Below, in pieces: positions 6,201-64,000 of a DNA stretch of 64,000 nucleotides. The translations under genes were made by a program, and so were the position numbers. The notes under the pieces are model-generated. The model did no database searches, was not told the origin of the DNA, and was given only the letters and a program-made list of their open reading frames with translations. The DNA comes from an uncultured Gemmatimonadales bacterium (lineage in GTDB: Bacteria; Gemmatimonadota; Gemmatimonadetes; Gemmatimonadales; JACORV01), in the NCBI GenBank assembly GCA_963806755.1, contig CAWDZR010000029.1:282780-346779 (forward strand), in the 5' to 3' direction. Position 1 is the first letter of the stretch, and the number at the start of each line of letters is the position of its first letter.

Positions 6201-6221
6201 CGCCCGGCCGCCGCGGCGCCG

Positions 6222-6533: not shown

Positions 6534-6534
6534 G

Positions 6535-9300: not shown

Positions 9301-9316
9301 CGCTCCGACCGACGGC

Positions 9317-12317: not shown

Positions 12318-12347
12318 GACCGTGACCTGGTCGGCGCGGCGCCGCCG

Positions 12348-12914
12348 GTGAGCCGGGACCTTGAGGATGCCCGGCGGCGGCTCGTCGTACTGCTGCGCTC
12401 CCGCTCCGTTCTGCACGGGGACTTCCTGCTGGCGTCCGGGCGCCGCTCACCCTACTACGTCGACTGCCGCCGTACTACCATGCACGCCCAGGGCCTGGTC
12501 CTTATCGGCGAGCTCGGCCTCGCGGCCATCCGCGCGGCGGGATGGAGCGCCCGGACGGTGGGCGGCCTGACGCTTGGCGCGGACCCGGTGGCCTATGCCA
12601 TCGCGCGAGCTTCGGCGGGCGACCCCGCGCCGCTGGACGCGTTCACCGTGCGCAAGTCGGCCAAGGCCCACGGGGCGCAACGGCGCATTGAGGGTTGCTT
12701 CGAGGCCGGCGTGGCCGCCGTGGTTGCCGAGGACGTCATCACGACCGGGGCGTCGGCGCTCGAGGCCGTCGCGCAGGTGCGCACGGCTGGCGGTACGGTC
12801 ACCGGCGTGCTGGCCGTGGTGGACCGCGAAGAAGGCGGCCGCGAGGCCCTCGAACGCGAAGGCCTCGCCGTGCGCACCCTGGTCACGATGCGCGAGCTGC
12901 TCGGCAACTCCTGA
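12348..12914 (+). CDS. pyrE: orotate phosphoribosyltransferase
   Basis: 188-aa track ORF; GDFLLASGRRSPYYVD and VVAEDVITTGAS PRPP-binding motif. Confidence 0.85.
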   Translation: MSRDLEDARRRLVVLLRSRSVLHGDFLLASGRRSPYYVDCRRTTMHAQGLVLIGELGLAAIRAAGWSARTVGGLTLGADPVAYAIARASAGDPAPLDAFTVRKSAKAHGAQRRIEGCFEAGVAAVVAEDVITTGASALEAVAQVRTAGGTVTGVLAVVDREEGGREALEREGLAVRTLVTMRELLGNS

Positions 12915-12917
12915 CCC

Positions 12918-12935
12918 GGCGCGCGGACGCGCGCC
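12918..12935. terminator. GC hairpin between convergent pyrE and AraC-type gene
   Basis: GGCGCGC-GGAC-GCGCGCC, 7-bp stem with 4-nt loop, read directly; no clear U-tract. Confidence 0.3.
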
Positions 12936-12974
12936 TCCCTGATCCAATCGACGCTTCACTCCAGGGCCGGCCGC

Positions 12975-13877
12975 TCACACCGTGGCCTGTCCGTGGTCCC
13001 CGGGCCGCGTTCCCAAAGGATGGAACGCGAGCAACCGGCCCCGATAGGGAGTGACGAATCGTTCCCGGAAGCGGGCCACCGCCGCCTCGAACGGGAGGCG
13101 GCGGCGGAATTCACCCGCCGTGACCCCGAGCAGCGCCCTGAGGTGCCGGCCGAAGCTCTGCGGCGACGAGTAGTCGAGACGGTTGGCGATGTCGGCGATC
13201 GAGAGCCCGCCGTTGCGGAACAGGTAGGCCGCGTGCAGCAGGCGCGCGTGCGCCAGGTACGTCTTGGGCGAAGGCAGATTGGTGCGGTAGAAGCGGGACA
13301 TCAGCGAGCTGGGCACCACCCGCAGGACGCGCGCGAGGCGCCGGACCGTCCGCAGCTCAGGCGCGCGCCGGACCACCACTTCGAAGAACAGCCGGCAATC
13401 CGGCGGCGCTCCGACGAGGTCGCGGTCGAGCTGTCCCATCACGCACGCGGAAACCGGCGAGCCGGGCTCGCGCAGCAGCTCGCGCAGGCGTCCCCACCCC
13501 GACGGCACCGACACGTCCACCACCGCGTGGACGCCCGAGGCCCCGAGGCTCAGCACCCGACGGGGTGCTTCGTGGTCCGGACGCGAGATGAGCGCGACGG
13601 CCGGCACCTGCGGGAACTCCCGGACGAACTGCGCGACGCGGGGAACCGCCGCGTCGTCGCACTGGTGCACCGACAGGAAGACGGCATCGACGGCGCGTCG
13701 CCGCACGTGGCGGATGGCCTCGTCGAGCGAATCCGCGTGGAGGGTGACGAAGCAGTCCTGCCCCGCCGCCTCCACGCGGGCGCGCTCGTCGGGCAGCAGC
13801 ACGGTGGCGACTGTGGCGGCTACGCTCATCCGAAGCTCCAGCTCGCGTCCGCGGGACACAGTACGAGCCAGGGTCAC
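12975..13877 (-). CDS. AraC-family transcriptional regulator with receiver-like N-terminal domain
   Basis: 300-aa track ORF; C-terminal HTH LSIADIANRLDYSSPQSFGRHLRALLGVTAGEFRR; an alternative start is ATG 13829. Confidence 0.75.
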   Translation of the reverse strand: MTLARTVSRGRELELRMSVAATVATVLLPDERARVEAAGQDCFVTLHADSLDEAIRHVRRRAVDAVFLSVHQCDDAAVPRVAQFVREFPQVPAVALISRPDHEAPRRVLSLGASGVHAVVDVSVPSGWGRLRELLREPGSPVSACVMGQLDRDLVGAPPDCRLFFEVVVRRAPELRTVRRLARVLRVVPSSLMSRFYRTNLPSPKTYLAHARLLHAAYLFRNGGLSIADIANRLDYSSPQSFGRHLRALLGVTAGEFRRRLPFEAAVARFRERFVTPYRGRLLAFHPLGTRPGDHGQATV

Positions 13878-15291: not shown

Positions 15292-16154
15292 GCCGGTCGA
15301 GGGTGCTGGCGCTGGCCGCCGCCTCGCTGCTGGTCGCGCGGGCGGCGGCGGCCCAGGTACCCCCGCCTCTGCCGGGGGCGAGCACGGGCGTCCCCGTGCC
15401 GATCCCGCCGGCACAGGCGGCGCGCTATCTCCTCACGACGGACGCGAGCGACGCCCGCGCCCTGTGGGTGGATCCCGCCGGCCTGGCGCGCCAGATGGAA
15501 GCGAGCCTCGGCGTGGAGATGGCGGCCGACCGGTTCGATTCGGGCGGCATGCAGCTGAGGCAATGGGGAGGGACCATCGCGAGCCACGGCGCCGCTGCGG
15601 GCTGGGTGCACGATCGCTACCCCAATGGCGCGTCGCTCAACATCTACGACATCGGTGTCGGGCTCGGCGACGAGCAGTTCTCCGCCGGCGCGGCGCATCG
15701 CTGGTATCGCGGCATCGTCACGGGCTCGGCGTGGGACGTGGGCTTTCGGTCCACCGTCTGGGAGGGCGCGGACGTCTCGCTGCTCGCCCGGAACATCGGA
15801 TCGCCGCGGTTGGGGGACACGACCTACTGGGCCACGCTGGTGCCCGGAGCGCTTGTCCGACTGTTCGGGGGTCGTCTCCAGGCAGGCGGCGAATGGGAGG
15901 TCGCCCCCCATGGCTGGCACTCGGTCGAGCTGCGCGCCGGCGGGGCCGTCGCCCTCGGCTGGGGACTCGGGCTCCTCGTGCGCGCGGATCTGGCGCCGGA
16001 CCTGAAGCGGCGCGGGTTCGCCATCGCGCTCGACTTTGAAGGCTCGCGCAGTCGGGCGACCGCCTTCGGCCTGCTGCCCGGCGGCGCCGGAGAATTCGAC
16101 GCGTTCGGCGGCTCGGCGGCGCTGGTCACGCGTTCCTCTTCGGGCGGCCGCTAA
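15288..16154 (+). CDS. hypothetical secreted protein, possible outer-membrane beta-barrel
   Basis: 288-aa track ORF; signal MSRSRVLALAAASLLVARAAAAQ; VDPAGLA motif and alternating Gly/aromatic pattern; GTGA overlap with the upstream gene. Confidence 0.5.
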   Translation: MSRSRVLALAAASLLVARAAAAQVPPPLPGASTGVPVPIPPAQAARYLLTTDASDARALWVDPAGLARQMEASLGVEMAADRFDSGGMQLRQWGGTIASHGAAAGWVHDRYPNGASLNIYDIGVGLGDEQFSAGAAHRWYRGIVTGSAWDVGFRSTVWEGADVSLLARNIGSPRLGDTTYWATLVPGALVRLFGGRLQAGGEWEVAPHGWHSVELRAGGAVALGWGLGLLVRADLAPDLKRRGFAIALDFEGSRSRATAFGLLPGGAGEFDAFGGSAALVTRSSSGGR

Positions 16155-40528: not shown

Positions 40529-40601
<73 letters not shown>

Positions 40602-40616
40602 CTCCCTCAACAACAC

Positions 40617-49328: not shown

Positions 49329-50603
49329 TCAGGTCGCGGCGGGATTCATGAGCCTGCCGAGGAACAGGATCGTCCCCGAGAACCGTTCCCGGATCGCGAA
49401 CAGGAACGGCCGGTCGATGGCGATGGGAGGCCGGGCGGCGGTGGCGCCGATCCCGACCGAGGTCGCCGCCGCCGCTTCGGTCCCCTCCTCGTCCACGTCC
49501 ACGTACGTCTTGTGCCTCACCTCGCTGATGTACAGGTCCCGAACGCTGCGCATCCGCGTGAAGTCGGCGCAGTCCGCCGCCCCGCCGCCGCACGGCTCGA
49601 ACGCCACGCCCATCCCGAGTGCCGAGAGCGCGTCGTTCAAGCGGAGCCCGTATGCCAGCCTGAACTTGGGCATGTGGACCTCCGCCTCGGTGGAATCGAG
49701 GCCGGCGATCCAGGTGTCCCACCGCGCCGGCGTGAGGCCGGCGAGGAGCGAGTCCATTCCCCCGGCGTCGCGGGGCATCACGATCGTCATGCTGTAGGCG
49801 CCGCCGCCGTAGCGAAGATCCAGCACCTGCACGTCGGCGTCGCCGCCGGCCAGGACCCAAGCCTGACCCGCGAAGGACATCGTGGGCACCGGCGTGCTCG
49901 ACCCGTCGGCCAGGGTGAACGGCGCCGGAGCCGTGCGGCTCGTGTCGAATTGCGTGACCCAGGCGCCCTTGAAGTACACGGCGTTGATCAGGTACATGAC
50001 GACGGCCGATGGGATCGGGTCGGGCACGATGGACGGGATCCTCCCGCCGGTCTGGTCGCTCACCCAGGCGTTGATGACCGGCGCCGCGTCCGGCGAGGCG
50101 AAGTCGAGGCCGCGCACGGCCGCGTCGAAATAGGCTTCGCAGGTATCGAGGAACGCCTGCTCGAACGCGAGGTCCTGGCGGTACCAGATCGAGTTCGCGA
50201 GCGTGAAGTCCACGCGCGGATCGAGGCCGCGCAGCAGGTCGATCACGCCCCGATAGGACTGATCCACCTCCGGTAGGCTCATCCCGCCGAGGCCGAGCGC
50301 GTCCTGCATCGCCGCCTGCGTCGTTCCGGCCGCCCCGTTGTAGGTCATGCCGAGCGCCATCCCGACGCTGAGCGGTGAGATGAAGAGGTTGGAGCCGGGA
50401 CCCGCCTGGCGGGCGATCGCCCCGAACAGCCGGAACGCGAAGTCGTTGTCGGCGGCGACCAGGTGCGTTTCGGAGGGCGTCAGGGCCCGGGGAAGGCCGG
50501 TGATGGGATTGGTCGTGGGGTTGGTGATCCTGCCGCCGTCGCTGCAGGCCGCCGCGAGCGCGACGGCCGCTGCGGCGATCCACACCCGGGACGCTTGTCT
50601 CAT
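49329..50603 (-). CDS. serpin family protein (lipoprotein-type signal)
   Basis: From MRQASRVWIAAAAVALAAACSDG within track ORF 49329..50645; NAVYFKGAW, EEGTEAAAAT hinge, PFLFAIRERFSGTILFLGRLMNP. Confidence 0.88.
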   Translation of the reverse strand: MRQASRVWIAAAAVALAAACSDGGRITNPTTNPITGLPRALTPSETHLVAADNDFAFRLFGAIARQAGPGSNLFISPLSVGMALGMTYNGAAGTTQAAMQDALGLGGMSLPEVDQSYRGVIDLLRGLDPRVDFTLANSIWYRQDLAFEQAFLDTCEAYFDAAVRGLDFASPDAAPVINAWVSDQTGGRIPSIVPDPIPSAVVMYLINAVYFKGAWVTQFDTSRTAPAPFTLADGSSTPVPTMSFAGQAWVLAGGDADVQVLDLRYGGGAYSMTIVMPRDAGGMDSLLAGLTPARWDTWIAGLDSTEAEVHMPKFRLAYGLRLNDALSALGMGVAFEPCGGGAADCADFTRMRSVRDLYISEVRHKTYVDVDEEGTEAAAATSVGIGATAARPPIAIDRPFLFAIRERFSGTILFLGRLMNPAAT

Positions 50604-50717
50604 GGACTCCCCCGCTCCTGGGTGATCCGTGCGGCGCGCGGGCACGCGACGCAGGGTCCTGGAGGGAAAGACCCCGGCGCCGCGGCGCGAGTCACTCGTC
50701 GGTCGGGTGCGGCGCCG

Positions 50718-52283
50718 CTACGGCTCCCGCCAGCGGGCGCCGTCGCGCGCGATGAACGCGTCGGCGATGCCCGGGCCCCAGGAGCCCGACACGTAGTTCG
50801 GGAAGTCGCGCGGCGGGTCGGCGCTCCAGGCCTTCACGATCGGATCCACGATGCCCCACGCCGCCTCCACCTGGTCGCTGCGGGCGTACAGGGTGCCGTC
50901 GCCGACCATGGCGTCGAGGAGCAGCGTCTCGTACGCCGAGTGGTCGGTGGCGCCGAAGGCCGTGGCGTAGCTGAAGTCCATCTGCACGGTCGTCATCTTC
51001 ACGTCCACGCCCGGCACCTTGATCTCGAAGCACAGCGATACGCCCTCGTTCGGCTGAATGCGGATCACGAGGACGTTGGACGCGAACGACCGGCCGCCGT
51101 TCTGGAACATCAGATGGGGCGGGCGGCGGAACTGGATCGCGATCTCGGTGGCCCGGCGGGCGAGGCGCTTGCCGCTGCGGACGTAGAACGGCACGCCCTG
51201 CCACCGCCAGTTGTCCACCAGGAAGCGGACCGCGGCGTAGGTCGGCGTGGCGGAGCCGGGGGCGACCCGCTCTTCCTGCCGGTAGCCGGGAAGGGCCGCG
51301 CCGCCGATGGCCCCCGGGCCGTACTGGCCGCGCACGGCGAAGTCGTCGATGGTGGCCGCGGTGATGGGCCGGATGGCGCGCAGCACCTTGACCTTCTCGT
51401 CACGCACCTCCTCGGCGCGAAACGCGACCGGGGGCTCCATCGCGGTCAGCGCCAGCAGCTGGAGCAGGTGGTTCTGGAACATGTCGCGCACCACGCCGGC
51501 CTGCTCGTAGTAGCCCGCCCGGTGCTCGACGCCCACGGTCTCGGCCGCGGTGATCTGCACGTGGTGGATGTGCTGCCGGTTCCAGATCGGCTCGAAGATC
51601 GAGTTGGCGAATCGCAGCACCAGGAGGTTCTGCACCGTCTCTTTGCCGAGGTAGTGGTCGATGCGGTAGACCTGGTGCTCGGCGAGGCGCTTCAGGACCG
51701 TCTGGTTCAGGGCCCGCGCGGTCTCGAGGCTGGAGCCGAACGGCTTCTCGATGATGACCCGGGCCCACGGCCGCTGCGCAGGGTCGTCGATGCGCGGCAC
51801 GAGGCCGGTCGCCGACAGGTGCTCGACCGCGGTGCCGTAGACCGAGGGCGGCAGGGCGAGGTAGAACAGCCTGCCGCGCGGGCTCCCGCTCTCCTTCTCG
51901 AATTCGGCGACGCGCGCGCTCACCGCCGCGAAGAACGCCGGGTCCGTCATGTCGCCCTGGACGTAGTGGATGCGCTTGGCGAAGTGGTCCCACGTCGCGT
52001 CCGGCACGTGGCCGATCTCCTCGGACTCGAGGATGGCCTGCTTCATCCGGTCGCGGAAATCCTGGTCGGTGAGACTCTCGCGCGCGGCGCCGACCACGGA
52101 GAAGTCGTCGTGCAGCAGCCCGTCGTGCAGCAGGTGGTACAGCGCGGGCATCAGCTTGCGGCGGGTGAGGTCGCCGCCGGCGCCGAGGATGACGGCGGTG
52201 CACGGGTCGCCCTTCTTGAAGGGCTCGGGCACGGACATGTGCTCCGAAAGCCGGAGCGGGACGGCGACGGACGGCTCGCTCAC
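50718..52283 (-). CDS. zwf: glucose-6-phosphate dehydrogenase
   Basis: Tail of track ORF 50718..52793; ILGAGGDLTRRKLMPALY, RIDHYLGKE; start GTG 52283 (GTGA overlap) or ATG 52238. Confidence 0.93.
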   Translation of the reverse strand: MSEPSVAVPLRLSEHMSVPEPFKKGDPCTAVILGAGGDLTRRKLMPALYHLLHDGLLHDDFSVVGAARESLTDQDFRDRMKQAILESEEIGHVPDATWDHFAKRIHYVQGDMTDPAFFAAVSARVAEFEKESGSPRGRLFYLALPPSVYGTAVEHLSATGLVPRIDDPAQRPWARVIIEKPFGSSLETARALNQTVLKRLAEHQVYRIDHYLGKETVQNLLVLRFANSIFEPIWNRQHIHHVQITAAETVGVEHRAGYYEQAGVVRDMFQNHLLQLLALTAMEPPVAFRAEEVRDEKVKVLRAIRPITAATIDDFAVRGQYGPGAIGGAALPGYRQEERVAPGSATPTYAAVRFLVDNWRWQGVPFYVRSGKRLARRATEIAIQFRRPPHLMFQNGGRSFASNVLVIRIQPNEGVSLCFEIKVPGVDVKMTTVQMDFSYATAFGATDHSAYETLLLDAMVGDGTLYARSDQVEAAWGIVDPIVKAWSADPPRDFPNYVSGSWGPGIADAFIARDGARWREP

Positions 52284-52933
52284 GCGGTCTCCAGTCGGCG
52301 GGTCGGGGTTTCGGGCATGGGGGCTCCTTCGGGGGCGACGCCGAGCGCGGCGAGATCGCGGCGCAGGGCGTCGGCGGTGGTGAACCGGATCGCGTGCATG
52401 CCGAGCGCGCGGGCCGGGGAGAGGTTCTGCTCGCGGTCGTCGATCAGCACCGAGGCGTCGGCCTCGGCCTGCGCCATCGCCAGCGCCAGCTCGTAGATGC
52501 GGCGCGACGGCTTGGCGACGCCGAGCCAGCAGGAGGTGAAGAAGGCGCTGAACAGCGGCGCCAGGCCGAAATGCCGTACCCGCCACGCGTTCAGCTCGGC
52601 CGACTCGTTGTTGATGGTCATGAGGCGCCAGCGGCCGGCCGCGGCCAGCGCGTGGGCGAGGGCGACGGTCTCGGGGTAGGGCGCGCTCTGGGCCCGCATG
52701 AACGCGGTGAACTCCTCGCGCGCGAACGGCCGCGGCACGTCGAACACCGTGCAGTCGAGGTACTCGTCGAGCGTGAGCCGCCCTTCTTCCCACTGCCCGA
52801 CGACCTCGCGGTGACGGCGGTCGAAATCAGTCGCGTCGAGCCGGAAGCGCTCCACCGCGCGGGCGCGCGACTCGGCGCCCCAGCCGCTGGTGCCGAGCAC
52901 GCCGCCGACGTCGAAGAACAGGTGCGTGATCAC
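52280..52933 (-). CDS. HAD-family hydrolase
   Basis: 217-aa track ORF; motif I FFDVGGVL, later LIDDREQN. Confidence 0.8.
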   Translation of the reverse strand: MITHLFFDVGGVLGTSGWGAESRARAVERFRLDATDFDRRHREVVGQWEEGRLTLDEYLDCTVFDVPRPFAREEFTAFMRAQSAPYPETVALAHALAAAGRWRLMTINNESAELNAWRVRHFGLAPLFSAFFTSCWLGVAKPSRRIYELALAMAQAEADASVLIDDREQNLSPARALGMHAIRFTTADALRRDLAALGVAPEGAPMPETPTRRLETA

Positions 52934-53376
52934 TGGGCGGCGCGGACCGCGGCGCCGAGCAGGCCGACCAGCGGACTCACGATGACGTGCACCGGCAGGC
53001 GGGAGGCGAGGTCCGACAGGCGCCCCTGGCTGCGGAACGCGGAGACGAACGCGCCGTCCTGGAGCTTCGCGATGATCCGGGGCGCGATGCCACCCGCGAC
53101 GTAGACGCCCCCGGTGGCGAGGACGGTGAGGGCGAACTGGCCGGCCTGGGCGCCGTACACGGACACGAACAGCTCCAGCGCCCGGGTGGACAGCGCGTCG
53201 TCCTTCGCGAGCCCGTGGCGCGTGATCACAGCGGCCTGGTCCTCGCGCTCCATCTCGTGGCGCAGCTCGGGGCGCTCGGTGGCGAAGCCGGTCGTGGCCA
53301 GGTAGCGATACACGCGCTCCAGGCCGGGACCGGAGAGGATGCGCTCGTAGGACACGTGGCCAAACGGCGGATCTTT
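52930..53376 (-). pseudogene. glk: glucokinase, C-terminal ~145 aa only (5'-truncated at the breakpoint)
   Basis: Track ORF 52930..53355 plus in-frame upstream codons give KDPPFGHVSYERILSGPGLERVYRYL...GGVYVAGGIAPRI, matching only the C-terminal half of glucokinases. In-frame TAA at 53377-53379, with no N-terminal ATP-binding half. Confidence 0.75.
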
Positions 53377-53402
53377 TTATAAAGCAATACTTCTTCGTTT
53401 CA

Positions 53403-53576
53403 CTACGGCGTCATCGCGCTGATGACGCTGTTGATCGTGCCCCTAATTCCGGAAGACAGTGCGATGAACACTGCAACCGTAAGGACGGTGATTACAGCCA
53501 GAACGACGCCGTACTCGGCCATCGTCTGCCCCTCCTCACGCATCAGGAACAAATGCAAACGCGCGATCATGCGCAT
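53403..53576 (-). CDS. flp: Flp-family type IVb pilin (prepilin)
   Basis: Own translation (57 aa, below the track cutoff): MRMIARLHLFLMREEGQTMAEYGVVLAVITVLTVAVFIALSSGIRGTINSVISAMTP; G-xxxx-EY processing motif followed by a hydrophobic helix. Confidence 0.75.
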   Translation of the reverse strand: MRMIARLHLFLMREEGQTMAEYGVVLAVITVLTVAVFIALSSGIRGTINSVISAMTP

Positions 53577-53988
53577 GTGAACTGCACCCCCCTTTTCGTC
53601 TACACGGCAGGCAGAGGCTTCAGCGCAGAACGAGAGACGGGAAGTAGCCCCCAGATCCGTCTCTTTCGCTCAACACGTGCGGTGCGCTTGAATACATCAC
53701 GCCGCAAAACCTCCCCCTAGTGGTTTCGTGGCGTGGCCGCGCCGCCGTGTTTGGTTGCGAGGTCAGAATCGAGAAACCAACGCCAACCTAAAATCCCTCA
53801 TCGCAGGTGATTTCGCGACGATTCTTCACTCTTTCTAGCGATCGACCGGCGGTAATTCACCTCATTGGGGGAACCGCTAATGGCTTTGCTGATTGCATAG
53901 TGTGAGAACGTCCCATCGCGGCTGGGAGCAGATAGCTATCCGGGCCGAGCGTGATCTCGGCGCCGATTTGAATGAGGGGGAGCCGTAG

Positions 53989-55611
53989 ATGAGGAAGAGA
54001 CGAGAGCCCGCGCGCAGGCGGGAGGACGAACGCCGGTCCGCGCGCGCCGCGCAGACCAGGCGCGACCGGCATCGAGACCGAGACAGGAGGCCGGGCTCGA
54101 GGACGACGGGTTCGTCTTCTGGCCCACCAGCCTGGGCGAGCCCGAAGGACCGCGCCTCGTTCAGGTCGAGCGCCGCCGGCGCGCGGGAACCGGAGAAGAA
54201 GCGCGTCCACCGCGCCGCCGCCTGGCAACCACCGTCCTCTTCGCCTTTCTCTTCTTCGCCGGAGCCGCCCTGACGGCGGCGGCCGGAAACGAGGTCGCCA
54301 CGATGGTCTCCTCCGTCCGTCCGAGCGCCGGCGGCAGAGCACGCAGACGACCGACACGAGCGCTACCGACACCGCGACCGACGACCACGACCGCGACCAC
54401 GCCGCGACCGACACGACCGCGACCGACGGAGCCGACGACAACCGCCACGACCACCATCGAGCGAGCCGACCCGGCTACGCACGACTACCGACGACGGCCA
54501 GCCCGCCGGCCCGGGCGATCAGCCGGCGCCGCCCAACGGCGCGCGCGACACCGCAGGTCACGACCACGACCACCGCCGCAGCCACGCCGAGCCGTCTCGC
54601 GCCGGCGCCCGGCATCCGACCGCGAGCACGGTCGCGAGCGGCTCGCAGAGCGCTCCCGCCGCGGGCGCGGCCGCGCAGCCCGAGAGCCACTCCGCAGCCG
54701 GTTCTGGCGCCACAGCCGGCGCACAAGTCGTCGGGGCATACGCACACGCAAGCAGGCCAAGGCCAGCTACGCCTCGCTGCACAAGGCGCCGAAACCGTAC
54801 GAGGTCGAGCCCGAGGCCGGCTCGAGCGGAACCACGGGCAACGTGCACTGGATCAACCGAGCCGCTGCCCGACCCGACGCCGGCATCGCTTCGGCTGACG
54901 CCCGCAGTTCGCGCAGCAACTTCGCGAGGCCAGCTCGGCCCGAGGGGCTCGACTGGGCCTTCCTGCTCGCCGTTCTTCGCGCCGAGCGACTCGAACAGCT
55001 CGGGCCAGGTCTCGCACTCCGCTGCTGCAACGCAAGGCCGCCGTCCTCGGCCCGCTTCACGTCTGGCCAGGCGATCGCAAGGCGGTGCTGCGCCTACAAG
55101 CACGAATGGCCTTTCACCCGACGCGTGCTGGTGCTCGAGCACTACTACGAGGCGCTGGGGCTGAAGGCGCTCGTGAACGGCCTCGCTGCCAGTCGCGACA
55201 GACCTCGCGGCCAAGATGCTGGCCGATCAGCGGATCGAGATCTACCCGGGCGGCCGCGACGACATCTCCTCCGGGACGCGTGGACGTGCGCGTGCTGGCG
55301 ATGATCGACTTCCTGGCCGAGTCCTTCGGCGACGTCCGCGTCTCCTGCCTGATCACGGGTCACCGCCTGTACGCGCGGCCCGGAGTGATCTCGGCGCACA
55401 TCTACGGACGCGCCGTCGACATCGCCGCCCTCGACGGACGTCTCGATCTACGGGCACCAGCAGCAGTCGAGCGTGACCGCGCGGGCCGTCAAGCAGATCC
55501 TGCTGCTGCCGGCCGAGGTGCTGCCGACGCCAGGTGATCTCGCTGCTCGGATTCGGCGGCCCGTCCTTCCCACTTGCCGACCACTACGACCACATTCACA
55601 TTGGCTACTGA
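53989..55611 (+). pseudogene. membrane-anchored M15-like (SxHxxGxAxD / HxH) peptidase, multiply frameshifted
   Basis: Coding signal hops between all three plus frames (track ORFs 53989, 54303, 55085, 55216 and others). These encode a TM helix LATTVLFAFLFFAGAALTAAAG, a Pro/Thr-rich linker, VDVRVLAMIDFLAESFGDVRVSCLITGHRLYARPGVISAHIYGRAVDIAALDG and a terminal SLLGFGGPSFPLADHYDHIHIGY*. Confidence 0.55.
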
Positions 55612-55612
55612 G

Positions 55613-56009
55613 TCCACGACACCCGAGAAAGGCCGCGTCCTGCTCGTCTGCGACGCGGCCGGTCGTATGCTCTGCGACCGCTGCCGCGTCGCCGACCGGC
55701 CGCTCAGCCGCATGCGCGGGCTGCTCGGGCGACGCTACCTCCGCGCCGGCGAGGCGCTGCTGCTGCGCCCGGCCGCGCGATTCACACCGCCTTCATGCGC
55801 TTCTCGATCGACGCCGTCTTCCTCGATCGCGGCGGCGTCGTGCTGCACATTGCGCACGATCTGCGCACCCTGGCGAACGGCATCGAAGCGCGGCGCCAGG
55901 GCGGTGCTGGAGCTTCCCGCCGGAGCGCCGCGCTGCGCGCGGGATCGAGCTCGGCGACAGGTTGAGGTTCATCTCTCCGCGCGACGCATCGCACGGAGAG
56001 CGAGCTTGA
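55613..56009 (+). pseudogene. DUF192-family protein, frameshifted
   Basis: CRVADRPLSRMRGLLGRRYLRAGEALLLRPA in one frame, RIHTAFMRFSIDAVFLDRGGVVLHIAHDL in a second, AVLELPAG and GIELGDRLRFIS in others; together these give the DUF192 pattern. Confidence 0.55.
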
Positions 56010-56123
56010 TTTGCCCCCTCGAAACGAAAGCCAGACGGAGCCGACGGGCTCCGCCGACTCCGGAACTCGAATCGGCGTGGCGCGACTCGCCTTCGATTCG
56101 AGTTCCCGAAAGGAGGTAACGAG

Positions 56124-57362
56124 ATGCACTTGCACACTCGCCTCCGACACCGATCGCGCGAGGACGGGCAAACGATAGTGCTCGCGGTGATCGCGATGGT
56201 GGCGCTACTTGCCCTTTCCGCGTTCGCGATCGACGTCGGATACGCCTACTACGCCCATCGCTCGCTACAGGCTTCGGCCGACGCCGCGGCGCTGGCGGGG
56301 GCACAGAAATTGCCCGACGCGGCGCTGCCACAGCCACGGCCCGCGAGTACGGGACGAGCTAGGCTGGCAAGAACAAGCTGACGAATATCGGCGACGTCAC
56401 CGAGACGATCACCACCAAGTGCCTGTCGAGCCTGCCCGGATGCGAACCGGCTAACGCCGTCGTCGCCGAGGAGATCGGCTCACGTGCCGACTTTCTTCGC
56501 ACGCGTGCTCGGGATCGACTCGCTCAACATCAAGGCCAAGGCGACCGCCTGCTCGTACTGCGGCGTCAAGCCGCTGGACATCATGCTGGTCGTCGACCGC
56601 ACGGGCTCGATGTGCATGGATCACTGGGGCGCCAACGATCCGGCCTGCACCGACATGAACAACGAGAAGACCGCGCTCAAGGAGTTCCTCAACTTCCTCG
56701 AGCCGGCCAGGCAGCGGGTCGGACTGGCCGTCTTCCCGCCGGCGACGAGCATTGCCGGTCGCTGTAACACGCCCAGCGACTCGAACTACAACTCGACCTC
56801 GAGCCCGTACGTGGTCGTTCCGCTTTCGAACGACTACTGCGCTCAAGGCCGGCTCACTGAACACGTCGTCGGCGCTCGTCTCGACGATCAACTGCCTCAA
56901 GGCGGCGGGCAACACCTCTTACGCTCTCGCCATCGAGAAAGCCCAGGCAGAGCTCAACGCACACGGGCGGGCGGAGTGCCGCACGTGATCGTCTTCTTCT
57001 CAGACGGCGCGGCCAACATCGGGCCGACCTACTTCCCGTCGACCTCGCCCTACCGCAAGCAGCCCTGCCACCAGGGTGTGAATTCGGCCGCGGGCGTGAA
57101 GGCCGGCGGAACGATCGTCTACTCGATCGGCTACGACCTGAATGCTCTGGACGGCGGCGCCAACGCCTGCCGTTACAACGGCTACACAGGACCGCTCGAG
57201 CAGCCCTCGATCACCGCCTACTCGGCGCTGCAACAGATCGCCAGCTCGACCAGTCACTTCTACGTGCAGCCGAGCGCAGGCGACCTGAGCCACGTCTACC
57301 TCGAGATCGCCGCCGACTTCTCGCGCGGCGCCTCGGGCCTGATCGACAACGACACCAACTAA
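56124..57362 (+). pseudogene. TadG-like pilus-assembly protein with vWA domain, frameshifted
   Basis: N-terminal Tad-like TM segment (track ORF 56124..56381: GQTIVLAVIAMVALLALSAFAIDVGYAYYAHRSLQASADAAALAGA). There is an in-frame TAG and frame changes near 56330-56480, then the vWA part (ORF 56484..57362, MIDAS DRTGSM, FFSDGAAN). The vWA motif GNTSYALAIEKAQAEL sits in another frame (ORF 56752..56988), implying two further compensating shifts. Confidence 0.65.
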
Positions 57363-57370
57363 AAGACGGC

Positions 57371-57406
57371 GGAGCGGGAGCGCCGGCCCGCCGGCTCTCC
57401 CGCTCC
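57371..57406. terminator. bidirectional GC hairpin between convergent genes
   Basis: GGAGCGGGAGCGCCGG-CCC-GCCGGCTCTCCCGCTCC, read directly; a degraded copy lies in the right arm near 63011-63050. Confidence 0.4.
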
Positions 57407-57444
57407 ACAGCTCGGTCGCTCTCGGCCGAGCTCGGGATGCTGCG

Positions 57445-57765
57445 TTAGGCGGCCGACCGGACTTCGATCAGCTCGAGCGCCGCACGCGGCAGTTTCTCGA
57501 TTCCACCCTCGCTTAGGCTGACGACGACGTTCTCGGGCTCGTTGGCATACCAACCGAGGATCACGCCTTCCGATCCGAGCGGCGCTGCGTCCAAATCTCT
57601 TTTCAGGCGTACGGCGTCGCGCGCCCTGAACAGCGCCTCGCCATAGACGAAGCCCGCCGGCATGGCGAGTGCCGGATCGGATCGCTGTGCTTTTAGCTGG
57701 GCTAATGCGGCCTGAAGGCTGCCGGGGCGACTACCGGTTGCGGTCTGGCTCTCGATATGGGACAC
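57445..57765 (-). CDS. hypothetical protein (106 aa)
   Basis: Intact track ORF; no family confidently recognised. Confidence 0.5.
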   Translation of the reverse strand: MSHIESQTATGSRPGSLQAALAQLKAQRSDPALAMPAGFVYGEALFRARDAVRLKRDLDAAPLGSEGVILGWYANEPENVVVSLSEGGIEKLPRAALELIEVRSAA

Positions 57766-57915
57766 GGCATCCCTCCTTGAGAATTCACACGGCTACTTAC
57801 TCCCACGGCTTGCGTTCAGCGGGCCGGACTACCTACTGATGAACTGCGGCGGCCGCGAGGGGTAAGCCATTGATCGGCTGGGAGAGGTTCCGATATATCC
57901 CTCAGTCAAGGTAAT

Positions 57916-58413
57916 GTGACAAATGGTCACGGTCCGGCGCTCGAGACGTGCGCCCGCCCTGCGATCATCCAGGGAATGGAGTCCAGAAAGCCAGACGAGC
58001 GAGAAGCGGCCGAGGAAATGCTCCGGCGGGCGCTGGAGACGGCCCGCGCCGAGGCCGGCTACCGTGCCTCGCGCTCGAGCGGGCCCGGTGGCCAGCACGC
58101 CCAGAAAAACGAGACGCGCATCGAGGCCTACCTCGAGCTTGACTCCTGCTCGCTCGACGAGGCGGCGAAGGAGCGCCTGCGCGAACGCTTCGGCCGCACG
58201 GTGCGCGCCGTCTCGCAGGACGAGCGCAGTCAGCTACGCAACCGCGAGCTCGCGCTCGAGCGACTGCTGGAAAAGATCCGGCTCGCGCTCGAGCCCGTGG
58301 CCGAGCGAACCGCCACCAAGCCCTCGCGCTCGGCCATTCTGAGGCGCCTGACCAGCAAGCGACACCGCTCTCGCACCAAGCACCTGCGCCGCCCACCGGG
58401 CGACGACGAGTAA
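57916..58413 (+). CDS. GGQ-motif class I release-factor-domain protein (ArfB-like peptidyl-tRNA hydrolase)
   Basis: Track ORF 165 aa; SSGPGGQHAQKNETRIE GGQ motif and a basic C-terminal tail KPSRSAILRRLTSKRHRSRTKHLRR; the true start is probably downstream of 57916. Confidence 0.7.
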   Translation: MTNGHGPALETCARPAIIQGMESRKPDEREAAEEMLRRALETARAEAGYRASRSSGPGGQHAQKNETRIEAYLELDSCSLDEAAKERLRERFGRTVRAVSQDERSQLRNRELALERLLEKIRLALEPVAERTATKPSRSAILRRLTSKRHRSRTKHLRRPPGDDE

Positions 58414-58580
58414 GAACCTCGAGCGGAATGAAGACCGATCGACTGGGTGCGATCGGTGAGTGCGAGGCTAGGACGCAGCGTCGCGTTCGTAGCCGGAGGC
58501 TACGGGCGAGACCGAGGACAACGCATCGTGCCGCCGAGCGCGGCCAGGCTATGGAGTGCTTCGTTTCGCTCGAGGTTCCG

Positions 58581-59168
58581 TTAGAGATCGATCCCCTTCT
58601 CCAGCTGCTCGAGACCGGCGTCGATGATCGCAACCTGATCTCGCGGCGACTCATGAGGCTCGGTCAGCGCGAGGGCGAACACGACTCCCATCATCGCGCC
58701 GGCAAGCACGCGCAACTCGAACTCGTCCGAACTTCTACCGCTGCGCTCCGCGACGATCTCGGTAACAAGGTTGACCATGCCAGCGATCTCGCCCAGCATG
58801 CGGGCCTGCAGCTCGGGGTTGGCGAAGATCAGCTCCTCGCGCTGGCGAACGACCTCGAACTCTTCCTCCGGAAGCTGGTCGAAGACGCTGCGCACCGCGT
58901 TCCGCAGCGCCTGGATCGCGCTCAGCTCGGGCGGCTGCGCCTCGAAGGCGTCGAACATCAGCGGGTCGGTCGGGTCGAAGAGCACGACGTCTTCCTTGGT
59001 CGGGAAGTAGCGGAAGAAGGTGCTCGGCGAGACCTCGGCCGCCTCGGCGATCTGCTCGACGGTGGTGGCGTCGTAGCCCTGCTCGTGGAAGAGCCGCAGG
59101 GCGTGCTCCTGGATGGCGGCGCGCGTCTTGGCCTTCTTGCGCTCGCGCAGCCCCAGGAGGTAGGTCAT
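58581..59168 (-). CDS. TetR/AcrR-family transcriptional regulator
   Basis: Intact 195-aa track ORF; HTH RAAIQEHALRLFHEQGYDATTVEQIAEAAEVSPSTFFRYFPTKEDV. Confidence 0.88.
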   Translation of the reverse strand: MTYLLGLRERKKAKTRAAIQEHALRLFHEQGYDATTVEQIAEAAEVSPSTFFRYFPTKEDVVLFDPTDPLMFDAFEAQPPELSAIQALRNAVRSVFDQLPEEEFEVVRQREELIFANPELQARMLGEIAGMVNLVTEIVAERSGRSSDEFELRVLAGAMMGVVFALALTEPHESPRDQVAIIDAGLEQLEKGIDL

Positions 59169-59171
59169 CTG

Positions 59172-60318
59172 TCAGGCGATGAGCTCATGACTCGATTCTA
59201 CTCGTTGCGACGACGCTTCGCGCCGCGCCGGCTCGCCGCGCGGCAGGAAGACGAGCGCCAGCAAGACCCGACGACGGCCGACGCCGCACAGACCAGCGAG
59301 CATCACGTCCATGCCGTGCACGAAGGCGCTGCGCACCGAGCTGAGCAGCGACGCCGAGCCGAGCTTGTGCGCGACGGCGAGGCCGGCGAAGACGCTCTGT
59401 CGCGCGCTGCGCGCCGCCGAGGCGGGCAGACCGGCCAGGTCGAGCCCGCTGCGGTAGGCGGAGTTCATGATCGAGCCCAGGATCGCCGACGCCGAAGGTG
59501 CCGCCGACCATGCGCACCGCCTGCATCAGTGCCGAGCCGACGCCGCTGCGCTCGGGCGAGAGCGCGCCGAGCGCCGCGTCCATCGCCGTCGGCATGGCGA
59601 AGCCGACGCCGGCGCCGCAGATGGTGATCCAGGCGGCCGCGAAGCCCTCGCCGCTGGTGACGCTCGTGGTCGCGCCGATCGACCAGGGCCGCGGCCGAAG
59701 ATCGCGAAGCCCGAGCGCCACCGTGACCTTGGCGCCGGCCGCGCGCGCCAGCCGCGGCCGAGCACCGCCCCGACGATCAGGCCGCCGATCATCGGCAGCA
59801 GGCGCAGGCCGCTGCCCAGGGCGTTCGTGCCGAGGATCGCCTGGAAGTACTGCGGCACGGCGAACATCAGCCCGAACATGGCGAACGACACCAGTGGCGA
59901 AGGTCGTGCCCCAGGTGAAGCCGGGCGAGCGGAAGAGGGTGAGGTCGACGAGCGGTTCGCGGACGCGCCGCTCCCAGAGCACGAACAGGCCGAGCACGAG
60001 ACGCCGGCGATCATCTCGACCGAGTGCGCCGGTTGCCCCAGCCCTTCTGGCCGGCTTCGATCACGCCGTAGACGAGCACCGCGAGGCCCGGCTCGAAGTG
60101 GCGATACCGAGCGGATCGAAGCGCCGCGCCCTCTCGCTGCGAGACTCCGGCAACAGGAGGCGACCACGCGATGAGGGCGATCACGACGACCGGGACGTTG
60201 ATCAGGAAGACCGAGCCCCACCAGTAGGTGGTCAGCAGCCAGCCGCCGAGGATCGGGCCGATCGGGTAGCCGAGCACAGTGGCGGCCATGATCGTCGCGA
60301 TCGCCTTGGGCCGCTCCT
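59172..60318 (-). pseudogene. MFS (DHA2/EmrB-like) transporter, N-terminally truncated by the fold-back and frameshifted
   Basis: Fragments in several minus frames: ERPKAIATIMAATVLGYPIGPILGGWLLTTYWWGSVFLINVPVVVIALIAW, LPESRSERARRFDPLGIA, VYGVIEAGQKGWGN, LGLFVLWERRVREPLVDLTLFRSPGF, ITICGAGVGFAMPTAMDAALGALSPERSGVGSALMQAVRMVGGTFGV, C-terminus ...HGMDVMLAGL. The first ~4 TM helices are missing. Confidence 0.7.
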
Positions 60319-60323
60319 CGTCG

Positions 60324-61298
60324 CTGTGGTCGCCTTCTTGCCGGAATCTCGCAGCGAGAGGGCTCGGCGCTTCGATCCGCTCGGTATCGCCAGCTGCGCG
60401 GCGGGCCTCGCCGTTCTCACCTACGGCATGATCGAAGCCGGGCAGAAGGGCTGGGGTAATACGGCGCACTGATCGAGATGGTTGCCGGACTTCTCGTGCT
60501 CGGACTGTTCGCGCTCGTTGAGCGGCGCGTGCGCGAACCGCTCGTCGACCTCGGCCCCAACTCGCCCGGCCTACGTCTGGGGCACGACCTCCGCCGTCTT
60601 GCTCTCGTTAGTTCGGGCTGCTCTTTTCGTGCCCGCCTTCTTCAGGAAATCTTCGGAACGAACGCCATGGGCAGCGGCGAGCGCCTGCTGTCCGATGATC
60701 GGAGGGTTGATTGTCGCGGCGGCGCCTCGGTACGCGGCTGGCCGCGCGGCTCGGGGCCGGATCACGGTGGCGCTGGGGCTCGCGATCTTCGGCTTCGCCA
60801 TGGTCATGGGCGCAACCGCGCCAGCAGCGAGCTCTTCATGATCACGCTCTGCGGCGCCGGTATCGGCCTGGCGATGCCGACGGCGATGGACGCCGCGCTG
60901 GCCGGCTCTTCTCGCCCGACAGCGCGGGCGCCGGCTCGGGGATGGTCCGGCGCTGCGCCATGGTCGGCGGCACCTTCGGCTCGGCGGTGCTCGGTTCGAT
61001 CCTGAATTCGATCTACCGCGGCGGGCTCGGACCTGGCCGGTCTTCCCGCCTCGGCGGCGCGGAGCGCGCGTCAGAGCGTCGTCGCCGGCGTCGCCGTCGC
61101 AAACAAGCTCGGCTCGGCGTCGCTGCTGCGAGTTCGGTACAGCACTCTTTCGTGCGCGGCATGGACGTGATGCTCGTAATCTGCGGGATCGTCACAGCAT
61201 TCGGAGTCTTGCTGGCGCTTCTATATGCCCGGAAAGACCGCGCGGCTTCGAAGCGTCCCTCGCAACGGTCAGAATTGAGTCATGAGCTCGACGGCTGA
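60324..61298 (+). pseudogene. degraded mirror copy of the MFS transporter C-terminal part
   Basis: LPESRSERARRFDPLGIASCAAGLAVLTYGMIEAGQKGWGN, then VAGLLVLGLFALVERRVREPLVDL..., ITLCGAGIGLAMPTAMDAAL, ...VRGMDVMLVICGIV in shifting plus frames. Confidence 0.7.
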
Positions 61299-61315
61299 CA
61301 GCGAGACCTGTAGGC

Positions 61316-61867
61316 TTGGGGCTACGCGAGCGGAAGAAGGCGGAGCACTGCTCGCCGCGATCCAGGCGGCGGCGCTACGCCTCTTCCACGCGCAGGGCTA
61401 CGACGCGACCACGAATCGAGCAGATAGCCGCCGCGGCCGAAGGGCCCCGAGCACCTTCTTCCGCTACTTTCCGACCAAGGAAGACGTCGTTCTGCTCGAC
61501 CTAGACGATCCGCTGGTGATCGACGCCTTCAGGCGCGGCCGGCCGAGCTGAGCGCGATCCAGGCGCTTCGAACGCGTACGCAGCGTCTTCGACCAGCTTC
61601 CGGAGGAAGAGTTCGAGGTCGTTCGCCAGCGCGAGGAGCTGATCTTCGCCAACCCCGAGCTGCAGGCCCGCATGCTGGGCGAGATCGCTGGCATGGTCAA
61701 CCTTGTTACCGCTGAGATCGTCGCGGAGCGCAGCGGTAGAAGTTCGGACGAGTTCGAGTTGCGCGTGCTTGGGAGTCGTGTTCGCCTGCGCAAGAGCCTC
61801 ATGAGTCGCCGCGAGATCAGGTTGCGATCATCGACGCCAGCAGCTGGAGAAGGGGATCGATCTCTAA
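61316..61867 (+). pseudogene. degraded mirror copy of the TetR regulator
   Basis: LGLRERKKAE..., YFPTKEDVVLLDLDDPLVIDAF, MLGEIAGMVNLVT in different frames; several indels (for example a 14-nt deletion relative to the left arm). Confidence 0.75.
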
Positions 61868-62035
61868 TGGAACCTCGAGCGAAACGAAGCACTCCACCGC
61901 CTGGCCGCGCTCGGCGGCGCGATGCGTCGTCCTCGGTCTCGCCCGTAGCCTCCGGCTACGAACGAGACGCTGCGTCCTAGCCTCGCACTCACCGATCGCA
62001 CCCAGTCGACGGGTCTTCATTCCGTCTCGAGGTTC

Positions 62036-62566
62036 TTACTCGTCGTCGCCGGTGGGCGGCGCGGTCTTCGTCGAGGGCGTCACTTGCTGGTCAGGCGCCT
62101 CAGAATGGCCGAGCGCGAGGGCTTGGTGGCGGTTCGCCTCGGCCACGGGCTCGAGCGCGACCAGATCTTCCAGCAGTCGCTTCGAGCGCGAGCTCGCGGT
62201 TGCGTAGCTGACTGCGCTCGTCCTGCGAGACGGCGCGCACCGTGCGGCCGAAGCGTTCGCGCAGCCGCTTGTTTCCGCACCTCGTCGAGCGAGCAGCAGA
62301 GCTCGAGGTAGGCCTCGATGCGCGTCTCGTTTTTCTGGGCGTGCTGGCCACCGGGCCCGCTCGAGCGCGAGGCACGTCTCCGCCTCGGCGCCGGGCCGCT
62401 CCAGCGCCCGCCGGAGCGTCCTCGGCCGCTCTCGCTGCGTCTGGCTTTCTGCGACTCCATTCCTGGATGATCGCAGGGCGGGCGCACGTCTCTGAGCACC
62501 CCGACGTGACCATTTGTAGCATCTCCTTGACTGAGGGATATATCGGAACCTCTCCCAGCCGATCAA
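62036..62566 (-). pseudogene. degraded mirror copy of the ArfB-like gene
   Basis: SSGPGGQHAQKNETRIEAYLEL is present only in the frame of track ORF 62080..62499; the rest is spread over other minus frames. Confidence 0.7.
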
Positions 62567-62667
62567 TGGCTTACCCCTCGCGGCCGCCGCGGCCTATAAG
62601 TAGGTAGTCCGCGCTGAACGCAAGCCGTGGGAGTAAGTAGCCGTGTGAATTCTCAAGGAGGGATGCC

Positions 62668-62974
62668 GTGTCCCATATGAGAAGCCAGACCGCAACCGGT
62701 AGTCGCCCCGGCTCGGCCTCACCGCAGCTAAAAGCACAGCGATCCGATCCGGCACTCGCCATGCCGGCGGGCTTCGTCTATGGCGAGGCGCTGCAGGGCG
62801 CGCGACGCCGTACGCCTGAAAAGAGATTTGGACGCAGCGCCGCTCGGATCCGGAAGGCGTGATCCTCGGTTGGTATGCCAACGAGCCCGACGTCGTCGTC
62901 AGCCTAAGCGAGGGTGGAATCGAGAAACTGCCGCGTGCGGCGCTCGAGCTGATCGAAGTCCGGTCGGCCGCCTA
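62668..62974 (+). pseudogene. degraded mirror copy of the 106-aa hypothetical gene
   Basis: MSHMRSQTATGSRPGS...LKAQRSDPALAMPAGFVYGEAL, then a frameshift (2-nt deletion), later a 1-nt insertion and a 3-nt deletion relative to 57445..57765. Confidence 0.7.
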
Positions 62975-63056
62975 ACGCCACATGCGAGCTGGCCGAGAGG
63001 CGACCAAGTGGAGCGGGAGAGCTCCGCGGGCCGGCGCTCCCCGCGTCCGCCGTCTT

Positions 63057-64000
63057 TTAGTGTGCCATATCGTCCGATCGGTCCGAGGCGCCGCGCGAGA
63101 AGTCGCGGCAATCACGAGGATGAGACCTTGCTCAGATCGCCCGAGCTGGGCTCCGACGTAGAACTGAGTCGCTCGAAGGTGGCGATCGGATTGCAATAGC
63201 CGGGTGGGCGGTAGGAATGGACGGCGTCCTCCATCGGCCCCGCTTCGCGCGTTATAGCGACAGGTGTTGGCACCGCCGTCCACAGCGTTCGGGCGTAGCC
63301 GATCGAGTAGATGATCGTTCCTCCGGACTTGACGGTCTTGGCCGAGGTCACGCCCTGGTGGACGGGCTGTTTCTCGGTACGGGGAGCTCGACGCGTAGTA
63401 GGTCGGGCCGAAGATATCACGCCCACATCCGAGAAGAAGATGATCACGCGGTCGACTCCGGCTCTTCCGTGGAGGTTCAGCTCGGCCTGCGCCTTCTCGA
63501 TCGCCGTTGCATAAGCCGGTGTCGCCCGCCGCCTTGATGGTCAGGAGATCGTCGGAGACCAGTTTCGACGAGGTGTTGAGCTGGCCGGTCTTGGGTCGGG
63601 CATAGTCGTTCGAGAGCGGAACGACCACATACGGGTTCGAGGCCGTGTTGTAATTCGTGTCGCTAGGCGTGTTACAGCTGCCCGAGGTACTCGTCGGCGG
63701 CGGGCAGCTGGCCAGCCCCACCCGCTGCCTGGCGGGCTCGAGGAGGCCGAACTCCTTCCGCGCGGCCTTCTCGTTGTTCCAGGTCAGTGCAGGCCGGATC
63801 GCTCTTCCCATAGTGGTCCTTGGCACATCGAGCCCCGTGCGGTCGACGACGAGCATGATGTCCAGCGGCTTGACACCGCAATACGAGCAGGCGGTCGCTT
63901 GGCGCCTGCTGAAGGACTTGATCCCGAGCACCCGGGCGAAGAACGTCGGCACCTTGGCCGTTCCTCGGCCACGACGGCATTCGCCGGATCGCTCGCGGGC
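63057..64000 (-). pseudogene. degraded mirror copy of the TadG/vWA gene (runs off the window edge)
   Basis: MPTFFARVLGI..ATACSYCGVKPLDIMLVVDRTG, CNTPSDTNYNTASNPYVVVPLSNDY, then scrambled frames. Confidence 0.7.

Follow-up and report, generated by a model that had tools for sequence, protein, structure and literature searches.

Around 53 kb in the window (the whole 64,000-nt stretch of DNA that was analysed), a minus-strand string of three genes, zwf, a HAD-family hydrolase gene and glk, comes to a sudden end. The zwf gene for glucose-6-phosphate dehydrogenase (50,718–52,283) is intact, contains the Pfam domains G6PD_N and G6PD_C, and encodes a protein with 95% amino acid identity to that of L092, a sibling metagenome contig that we found by scanning metagenome contigs with the zwf of the window. 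The hydrolase gene (52,280–52,933; Pfam Hydrolase/HAD_2) is also intact and overlaps both zwf and glk by 4 nt; at 52,280–52,283 and 52,930–52,933 these start/stop overlaps read GTGA, exactly where the preliminary description had placed them. The third gene, glk, is present only as a 3′ fragment (52,930–53,364), which encodes the C-terminal stretch of approximately 144 residues from FGHVSYERILSGPGL and is of high sequence quality as far as the point at which it is cut. The minus-strand frame from 52,930 to 53,376 corresponds only to positions 179–313/314 of the Pfam Glucokinase profile (E = 2.6e-44), in agreement with the earlier view that the N-terminal half is missing, and the in-frame TAA reported for this frame is indeed located at 53,377–53,379. 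The alignment of the fragment to the C-terminal portion of the L092 glk ORF (352 aa) is free of frameshifts.

These genes appear to belong to a Gemmatimonadales-like genome with a GC content of about 72% on this side of the window. The best named relative of the glk fragment is a Gemmatimonadales MAG (61%), and because the phylum assignment of the left flank draws on this single named match at 61%, we hold it with moderate confidence. Conservation of glk synteny in a named Gemmatimonadales MAG (L172) was considered as taxonomic support and rejected, as the synteny is not conserved.

To the right of glk lie genes of a second, Actinomycetota-like genome. First comes a minus-strand flp pilin gene (53,403–53,576; Pfam Flp_Fap), which, together with 38 nt downstream of it and non-coding DNA upstream, occupies 53,365–53,988. 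Three plus-strand genes follow: the ortholog of a 524-aa hypothetical gene of the metagenome contig L087 (53,989–55,610), with approximately 20 single-base insertions and tblastn matches in all three frames; a frameshifted DUF192 gene ortholog (55,660–56,119), with tblastn matches in two frames and a weak Pfam DUF192 match; and a Tad/vWA (TadG-like) ortholog (56,124–57,362; Pfam Tad and VWA), matched by tblastn over residues 1–412, which contains one stop and paired compensating frameshifts, with indels at 56,320/56,473 and 56,838/56,972. A clean island (57,431–59,170) holds three intact genes, namely a 106-aa gene (57,445–57,765, minus strand), an RF-1 domain gene (57,916–58,413, plus strand) and a TetR regulator with an MftR-type C-terminal domain (58,581–59,168, minus strand), and the ORFs of the island have 79–89% amino acid identity to those of L087. 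An element of approximately 165 nt (58,410–58,585) with a predicted hairpin (z = -7.0) forms an intergenic 161-nt insertion relative to L087. Finally, there is the 3′ two-thirds of a gene for an MFS (EmrB/QacA-type) transporter (59,181–60,325, minus strand; residues ~137–520), which is frameshifted and matched by tblastn in three frames; its 5′ third and the S8 peptidase gene that lies upstream in the relatives (context seen in L001 and L087) are absent from the window.

The contigs used for comparison on this side, L087–L091 and L001–L004, were reached through homologs of the window's TetR. From 53,365 to 60,323 the order of genes, from flp to the MFS gene, is that of L087 and L090, gene for gene. 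Of a Tad/Flp pilus locus, which would comprise flp together with tadE/F, rcpC, tadZ, cpaF/tadA and tadB/C, only flp and the TadG-like gene are present here, the remainder of the operon found in L087 and L090 being cut off at the join.

The point at which the two parts meet

In a three-way alignment of the window, L092 and L087, the inter-genome join falls at 53,364|53,365 (±1 nt). On the left, L092 aligns to positions 50,712–53,365 at 88% nucleotide identity and then runs on into the remaining part of glk; it carries a full-length glk ORF of 352 aa (Pfam Glucokinase positions 1–312) in the order glk-HAD-zwf, and its native continuation, the 5′ half of glk (positions 4293–4915 of L092), is not in the window. 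On the right, L087 aligns to 53,365–58,418 at 87.6%, and the leftward limit of homology of both L087 and L090 is exactly 53,365, 38 nt downstream of the flp stop. Beyond that point L087 and L090 carry a native 40-aa ORF, tadE, rcpC, tadZ and cpaF, all of which are absent from the window. Read across the join, the window matches L087 through ...AAAAAGATCCGCCG and then L092 through TT(T/C)GGCCA(C/T)GTGTCC..., with an ambiguity of 1 nt. A 35-mer that spans the join had no match in genome_contigs or metagenome_contigs, and look-ups of the HAD and TetR proteins by exact sequence gave no record. As the relatives of each flank stop at the same nucleotide, and as both native contexts are truncated, two unrelated genomes meet there. 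The preliminary description was therefore right to place an abrupt breakpoint inside glk, but the break lies at 53,364|53,365 and not at the TAA. It had also seen an AT-richer stretch of approximately 600 bp beyond the break; this stretch exists, and it is the native flp gene and upstream DNA of the second organism, with 94–96% nucleotide identity to L087 in the flp region.

The composition of the DNA changes at the same place. The GC fraction is about 0.72 on the left, as against 0.64–0.70 (about 0.65) on the right. Tetranucleotide profiles correlate at r = 0.99–1.00 within the left side and with L092 (GC 73.6%; correlation with the left side 0.99) and at 0.98–0.99 between the right side and L087, but only at 0.92–0.95 across the junction. 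The tetranucleotide profile of L087 itself (GC 65%) correlates at 0.99 with that of the right side and at 0.94–0.95 with that of the left. The best named matches of the L087 CpaF are from Gaiellaceae (81%) and Actinomycetota (77%), and the right side is accordingly described here as like a Gaiellaceae-type actinobacterium. We also tried to obtain the taxonomy of the right side from TetR, using GTDB genomes, and rejected this approach: the best match reached only 63%, and the matches were spread over Actinomycetota, Ktedonobacterales, Paenibacillus and one Gemmatimonadota. As the MFS–TetR pair is a widespread cassette, TetR is uninformative for taxonomy, and the CpaF of L087 was used instead. 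In this two-sided comparison of GC, tetranucleotides and closest relatives, which the preliminary description had proposed as a check, the signals switch at the join. As expected of an inter-genome chimera, the relatives of the two flanks differ, each of them stops at the break, and both the compositional and the taxonomic signal change there.

The absence of mobile-element hallmarks that had been noted from the letters alone was borne out by searches of several kinds. Pfam scans of the ORFs flanking the junction detected neither a transposase nor an integrase domain; the sole tRNA of the window, a tRNA-Phe at 40,529–40,602, lies 12.8 kb away from the junction; an Rfam scan of 52–64 kb returned zero matches; and no direct repeats flanking the junction, and no repeat or mobile-element signature at the join itself, were found. 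A genomic island would resemble this locus in that composition and genes of foreign appearance start abruptly and interrupt a housekeeping gene. It would differ in that here there is no integrase, tRNA target, direct repeat or second boundary, the foreign stretch is palindromic and full of errors, and the cut in the donor operon falls just after flp.

On a rival explanation, the junction would be a product of real biology, in which an actinobacterial tad/flp fragment entered the glk gene of a Gemmatimonadales bacterium by illegitimate recombination and then underwent inverted duplication and pseudogene decay. The junction is clean, as an illegitimate one may be. However, the finding of an unbroken glk at the corresponding position in a sibling assembly had been set beforehand as a test of a real rearrangement, and L092 has just such a gene. 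This argues against the rearrangement but falls short of strict refutation, because L092 is a different species-level lineage (88% nucleotide identity). The right-hand part has, in addition, undergone no compositional amelioration and bears no mobile-element signature, while an insert in the chromosome would have the coverage of the chromosome and hence its consensus quality. Taken with the evidence on sequence quality and palindromy given below, we consider such an event to be very unlikely.

Sequence quality to the right of the join

Frame continuity was measured without a reference, as the number of switches of the GC3-rich codon phase per kb. The rate is 0.9 per kb for positions 1–53,370, but 4.4 for 53,371–57,430, 0.57 for the clean island at 57,431–59,170, 3.5 for 59,171–60,312 and 3.0 for 60,313–64,000. 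Thus, the earlier claim that frames are disrupted to the right of the break holds for the greater part of that DNA, where the rates are 3.0–4.4, but not for flp or for the island, which are intact. Good quality extends over the first ~600 nt beyond the join as well, and the Flp protein is identical to that of L087 at 57/57 residues. Similarly, the clean island has zero frame-disrupting indels relative to L087; its gaps are a 4-nt and a 1-nt intergenic insertion (57,829–57,858) and the hairpin insertion.

Relative to L087, 53 short indels occur in 53,365–60,323, the majority of them insertions of one base. The stretch from 53.6 to 55.6 kb has 27 insertion events and 4 deletions. Only 16 of the 53 short indels adjoin an identical base, which means that the indels are not associated with homopolymers, and a homopolymer-driven error model was rejected on these grounds.

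To compare proteins across the broken frames, indels alone were deleted or filled and the resulting amino acid sequences were aligned to those of L087. After this repair the 524-aa gene is a single open frame with 0 stops and 82.8% amino acid identity, the DUF192 gene is open at 88.7%, and the Tad/vWA gene retains one stop at 83.7%; the RF-1 gene, which was never broken, is open at 87.3%. As the removal of indels restores open frames at 83–89% amino acid identity, it follows that the genes were functional and that only their representation is corrupt. Breakage by indels alone, combined with the substitutions of a functional ortholog, is the pattern to be expected of sequencing or consensus error and not of long-term pseudogene decay.

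These results bear directly on the possibility of real insertion and decay. A decaying horizontally acquired segment would carry neutral nonsense and non-synonymous substitutions beside its indels. Here the disruption consists almost purely of indels, the substitutions are conservative, and frames with 83–89% identity return upon repair, as they would not after neutral decay. The Flp protein is, moreover, 100% identical to that of a free-living relative, and the indels are biased towards insertion or towards deletion according to region, unlike natural spectra.

The quality data also bear on the suggestion that two separate contigs, a clean Gemmatimonadales one that ends within glk and a noisy actinobacterial one of low coverage that bears the fold-back, were set end to end without an N spacer, by concatenation, binning or scaffolding after assembly. 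In accordance with this suggestion, the join is blunt to ±1 nt and offers no common k-mer or repeat for an assembly graph to follow, and the left part is clean as far as the join while the right part belongs to a wholly different quality regime. However, the glk fragment (P0121, 141 aa) and TetR (P0001, 195 aa) are recorded on one NCBI/ENA contig, and public WGS records normally keep contigs apart or insert Ns. Furthermore, the good first 600 nt, with their perfectly conserved Flp, are easier to reconcile with a continuous read than with a low-coverage contig, whose end would be ragged. Taken by itself, the window is compatible with a chimeric read or graph join as well as with the concatenation of contigs; weighing these points together, we regard concatenation as improbable.

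The fold-back inverted repeat

The last 3.7 kb of the window is an inverted repeat of the DNA that precedes it, a feature overlooked in the preliminary description. Self-BLAST and a repeat search place the first arm at 56,434–60,179 (plus strand), its visible start being set only by the end of the window, and the second arm, its reverse complement, at 60,312–64,000 (minus strand), where it is cut by the window end. The arms share 84.5% identity, with 352 mismatches and 183 gap openings in the self-BLAST alignment, and the second arm is noisier and, overall, 57 nt shorter than the first. Alignment to both strands of L001 locates the strand switch inside the MFS gene at 60,317–60,323, on a 7-nt microhomology, CTCGTCG. 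The minus-strand copy of the MFS gene ends at residue ~137 (60,325), its plus-strand counterpart begins again at residue ~187 (60,317), and between the arms there is a unique centre, or loop, of ~132–140 nt that consists of MFS coding sequence. In the relatives the MFS gene is single and intact (520 aa), and there is no such repeat.

The comparison of the two arms with L087 differs from zone to zone. In 57,434–58,834 the first arm has ~0 unique changes, whereas the second has approximately 5% substitutions, 4.4% deletions and 0.6% insertions. Within RF-1, for example, 45 differences from L087 are common to both arms and enriched at third codon positions (10, 8 and 27 at the three positions), while the unique substitutions number 2 in the first arm and 46 in the second, the latter spread evenly over the codon positions (14, 19 and 13). 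In the Tad/vWA zone, by contrast, 102 differences are unique to the first arm and third-position enriched (26, 19 and 57), and the second arm lies nearer to L087 than to the first arm. Changes unique to one arm are distributed evenly over codon positions in the MFS zone. The idea that the arms are two passes of one molecule was tried on this basis and rejected in its simple form: the data agree with it in 57.4–58.8 kb, contradict it in the Tad/vWA zone and can be read either way in the MFS zone. Of the features of a fold-back read, inverted arms with a short spacer and a shorter, poorer second arm are therefore both seen here, but the arms are not of a single genotype. The simplest reconciliation of the discrepancy between the arms would be a consensus, or polishing, from few reads of co-occurring related strains.

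An inverted repeat of this kind could also be held to favour a biological origin of the whole arrangement. A 7-nt microhomology at the fold-back is found in template-switch events, and part of the difference between the arms, that in Tad/vWA with its third-position enrichment, resembles true divergence. However, the ratio of indels to substitutions between the arms is ~1:1 overall and 9:1 in the 106-aa gene (9 indels and 1 substitution), and this argues against real duplication and decay in the Gemmatimonadales genome. Given palindrome intolerance of the SbcCD type, a palindrome with arms of more than 3.7 kb and a spacer of ~140 nt ought also to be unstable in bacteria. A variant of the biological reading, according to which ~7 kb of Gaiellales-like DNA from flp to the MFS gene was really captured in glk and then underwent a microhomology-mediated inverted duplication, the noise arising only from misreading of the palindrome, seems to us scarcely credible.

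There is a further intermediate case, in which the join is artefactual and the fold-back is a true inverted duplication, of template-switch or TID-like type, in the actinobacterial population, which was then poorly read. The microhomology and the unique loop of ~140 nt have the anatomy of replication template switching (cf. PMC10766183), and in nanopore data the second arm of genuine inverted duplicates is degraded as well (PMC7229812). However, snap-back priming and ligation-library artefacts give an identical anatomy in vitro, in 0.18–7.3% of reads (PMC13141652). In addition, the MFS gene is truncated, the neighbouring S8 peptidase context, which is kept in 5 of 5 relatives, is discarded, and the relatives are single-copy at this locus. 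We therefore think a true duplication very improbable.

Origin of the chimera and its relation to known artefacts

The join is very probably an artefact, that is, a technical chimera, and not a biological rearrangement. The preliminary description had listed a chimeric join, a concatenation and a real rearrangement as candidates, and the cut contexts, the change in composition, the fall in quality and the fold-back all favour the artefactual ones. On this interpretation glk appears cut because the contig switches at one nucleotide to unrelated, error-ridden actinobacterial sequence. A well-covered Gemmatimonadales-like chromosome (1–53,364) would have been joined to at least 10.6 kb of DNA from a low-abundance Gaiellaceae-like member of the Actinomycetota (53,365–64,000). 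The second part would be of barely corrected long-read quality, and the last 3.7 kb of the window repeats the preceding genes in reverse complement.

As to the route, we favour, with moderate confidence, a long read that was both chimeric and folded back, in a region of low coverage. One or a few chimeric long reads, which would comprise a ‘cross’ chimera of two DNA fragments and an ‘inverted-repeat’ or snap-back chimera, may have extended the Gemmatimonadales contig; this extension would have been covered by few other reads, hence the survival of indel errors through polishing; and the second arm of the fold-back would have been base-called worst. The collapse in quality and the fold-back coincide with the break, which points to read-level chimeras and not to a shared repeat in the graph. 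The sequencing technology, the low coverage and an origin of the chimera in library preparation or read handling, as opposed to the assembly graph, are likewise what we infer from these patterns.

Several observations fit this account poorly. First, the insertion bias between 53.6 and 55.6 kb differs from the usual nanopore bias. Second, a search for SMRTbell sequences and the ONT ligation adapter (allowing up to 3 mismatches) gave no match, and thus no adapter remnant, at either join. Third, it would be unusual for a single read to contain a cross-chimera together with a fold-back. Finally, the arms are not one genotype, and the account needs the extra assumption of strain-mixed polishing or consensus.

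Chimerism and contamination in metagenome-assembled genomes are the target of tools such as GUNC, and the present contig shares with other inter-genome chimeric contigs of this class an abrupt switch in lineage and composition, the truncation of both flanks and the lack of mobile-element hallmarks. It is unlike them in that the break could be placed to ±1 nt by means of close relatives of both sides, and in that a quality collapse and a fold-back coincide with it. Lasken and Stockwell are said to have described, in 2007, inverted chimeras that arise from strand-displacing polymerases and snap-back priming (MDA-type). The fold-back here resembles these in its inverted join, its short (7-nt) microhomology and its offset, by which ~140 nt are left as a unique loop; it differs in that nothing indicates amplification of the sample, and the 7 nt of overlap may be there by chance.

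The closest parallels come from nanopore sequencing. In ligation libraries, false chimeras are most often of the inverted-repeat and cross types, which make up 0.18–7.33% of reads (PMC13141652). As in those reads, there is here one cross join and one inverted-repeat join, both of them direct and adapter-free; unlike them, the present case is known from a contig and not from reads, and its arms are partly of different genotypes. Similarly, where inverted duplicates are read by nanopore, bases beyond the inversion junction are called with low confidence, called wrongly or missed altogether, and this stretch is read as shorter than the one before it (Spealman et al., 2020; PMC7229812). The second arm in the window agrees with this, with approximately 10% extra error, mostly missed bases, and a reduced length. 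However, the inverted duplications of that study were real ones, in yeast and human DNA, whereas the one described here is likely to be an artefact, and it has undergone some polishing.

The biological importance of the junction is low, since glk appears to have been destroyed in no organism, but its practical importance as a quality flag is moderate. A public contig of 347,844 bp bears at least 10.6 kb of foreign, error-ridden and palindromic sequence, and the false calls to be expected from it include a truncated glucokinase, pseudogenes, gene transfer between phyla, and a Tad/Flp system in a Gemmatimonadales genome. Contig ends of this type can be recognized without a reference by a jump in GC3-phase switches together with a self-inverted repeat whose second arm is noisier and shorter, and a further sign is that the relatives of both flanks stop at one nucleotide. 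Two related contigs of long-read type were checked for similar fold-backs; L086 contains just a direct repeat of 405 nt, and in L085 there is a weak palindrome of 130 nt, while both of these contigs contain split genes.

Genotypes of the two fold-back arms

The two arms of the fold-back carry different genotypes in the Tad/vWA zone (56434-57434 on the first arm, 63000-64000 on the second). Here 102 differences are unique to the first arm, with an excess at third codon positions; the second arm is the closer of the two to L087, a metagenome contig related to the actinobacterial genome on the right-hand side. In the 57.4-58.8 kb interval, a single genotype is common to both arms. This pattern suggests that the consensus was mixed from related strains.

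Sequence around the breakpoint

The Flp pilin encoded on the minus strand at 53403-53576 is identical to its counterpart at 15391-15564 of L087 (57/57 amino acids), whereas the genes neighbouring flp share only 79-89% identity with that contig. The pilin appears to be unusually strongly conserved, or to have been recently exchanged, among these Gaiellales-like populations. Within the gene for the 524-amino acid hypothetical protein lies an imperfect, A+C-rich repeat of ACGACC-type units (54340-54600; AT skew +0.34), which codes for a Thr/Pro-rich low-complexity linker, and this linker region is the part of the gene least conserved relative to L087, at 70% identity and including an insertion of 25 nt. 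L087 also contains a G8 homopolymer at 15603-15610 (CCGGGGGGGG), which begins one base past the equivalent of the window breakpoint. If the window's own actinobacterial genome shares this run, the break would adjoin a homopolymer, which may have had a bearing on the formation of the chimera, or none at all.

A hairpin element and a serpin gene

The RF-1 and TetR genes are convergent, and the region that separates them contains a near-perfect hairpin element of ~165 nt (58410-58585, with a second copy at 61863-62039), for which the minimum free energy is -98.1 kcal/mol (z = -7.0 against shuffled sequences). As this element is absent at the same RF-1/TetR intergenic position in L087 and in two further related contigs, L090 and L001, it is a lineage-specific insertion, either MITE-like or terminator-like.

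In the left-hand genome, a gene on the minus strand at 49329-50645 encodes a serpin of 438 amino acids (Pfam Serpin, E 1e-102), and has a GH47 glycosidase gene on one side and zwf on the other. This stretch of ~1.4 kb is missing from the sibling contig L092, where positions 7,587 and 7,576 correspond to window positions 49,318 and 50,712. The serpin gene is a real presence/absence difference between the left-hand genome and L092.

Split genes in related assemblies

The nearest glk homologues in long public MAG contigs are found in L085 (GCA_963738395.1, CAVTWN010000031.1) and L086 (ERZ25039469 contig_62578, bases 1-13113), and frameshift-type errors may be common in assemblies of this type. 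Split genes are present in these contigs too: the gene for an ABC permease is divided into three pieces and that for transketolase into two, with glk no longer than 204-231 amino acids. In L086, the gene splitting is located at the contig end.
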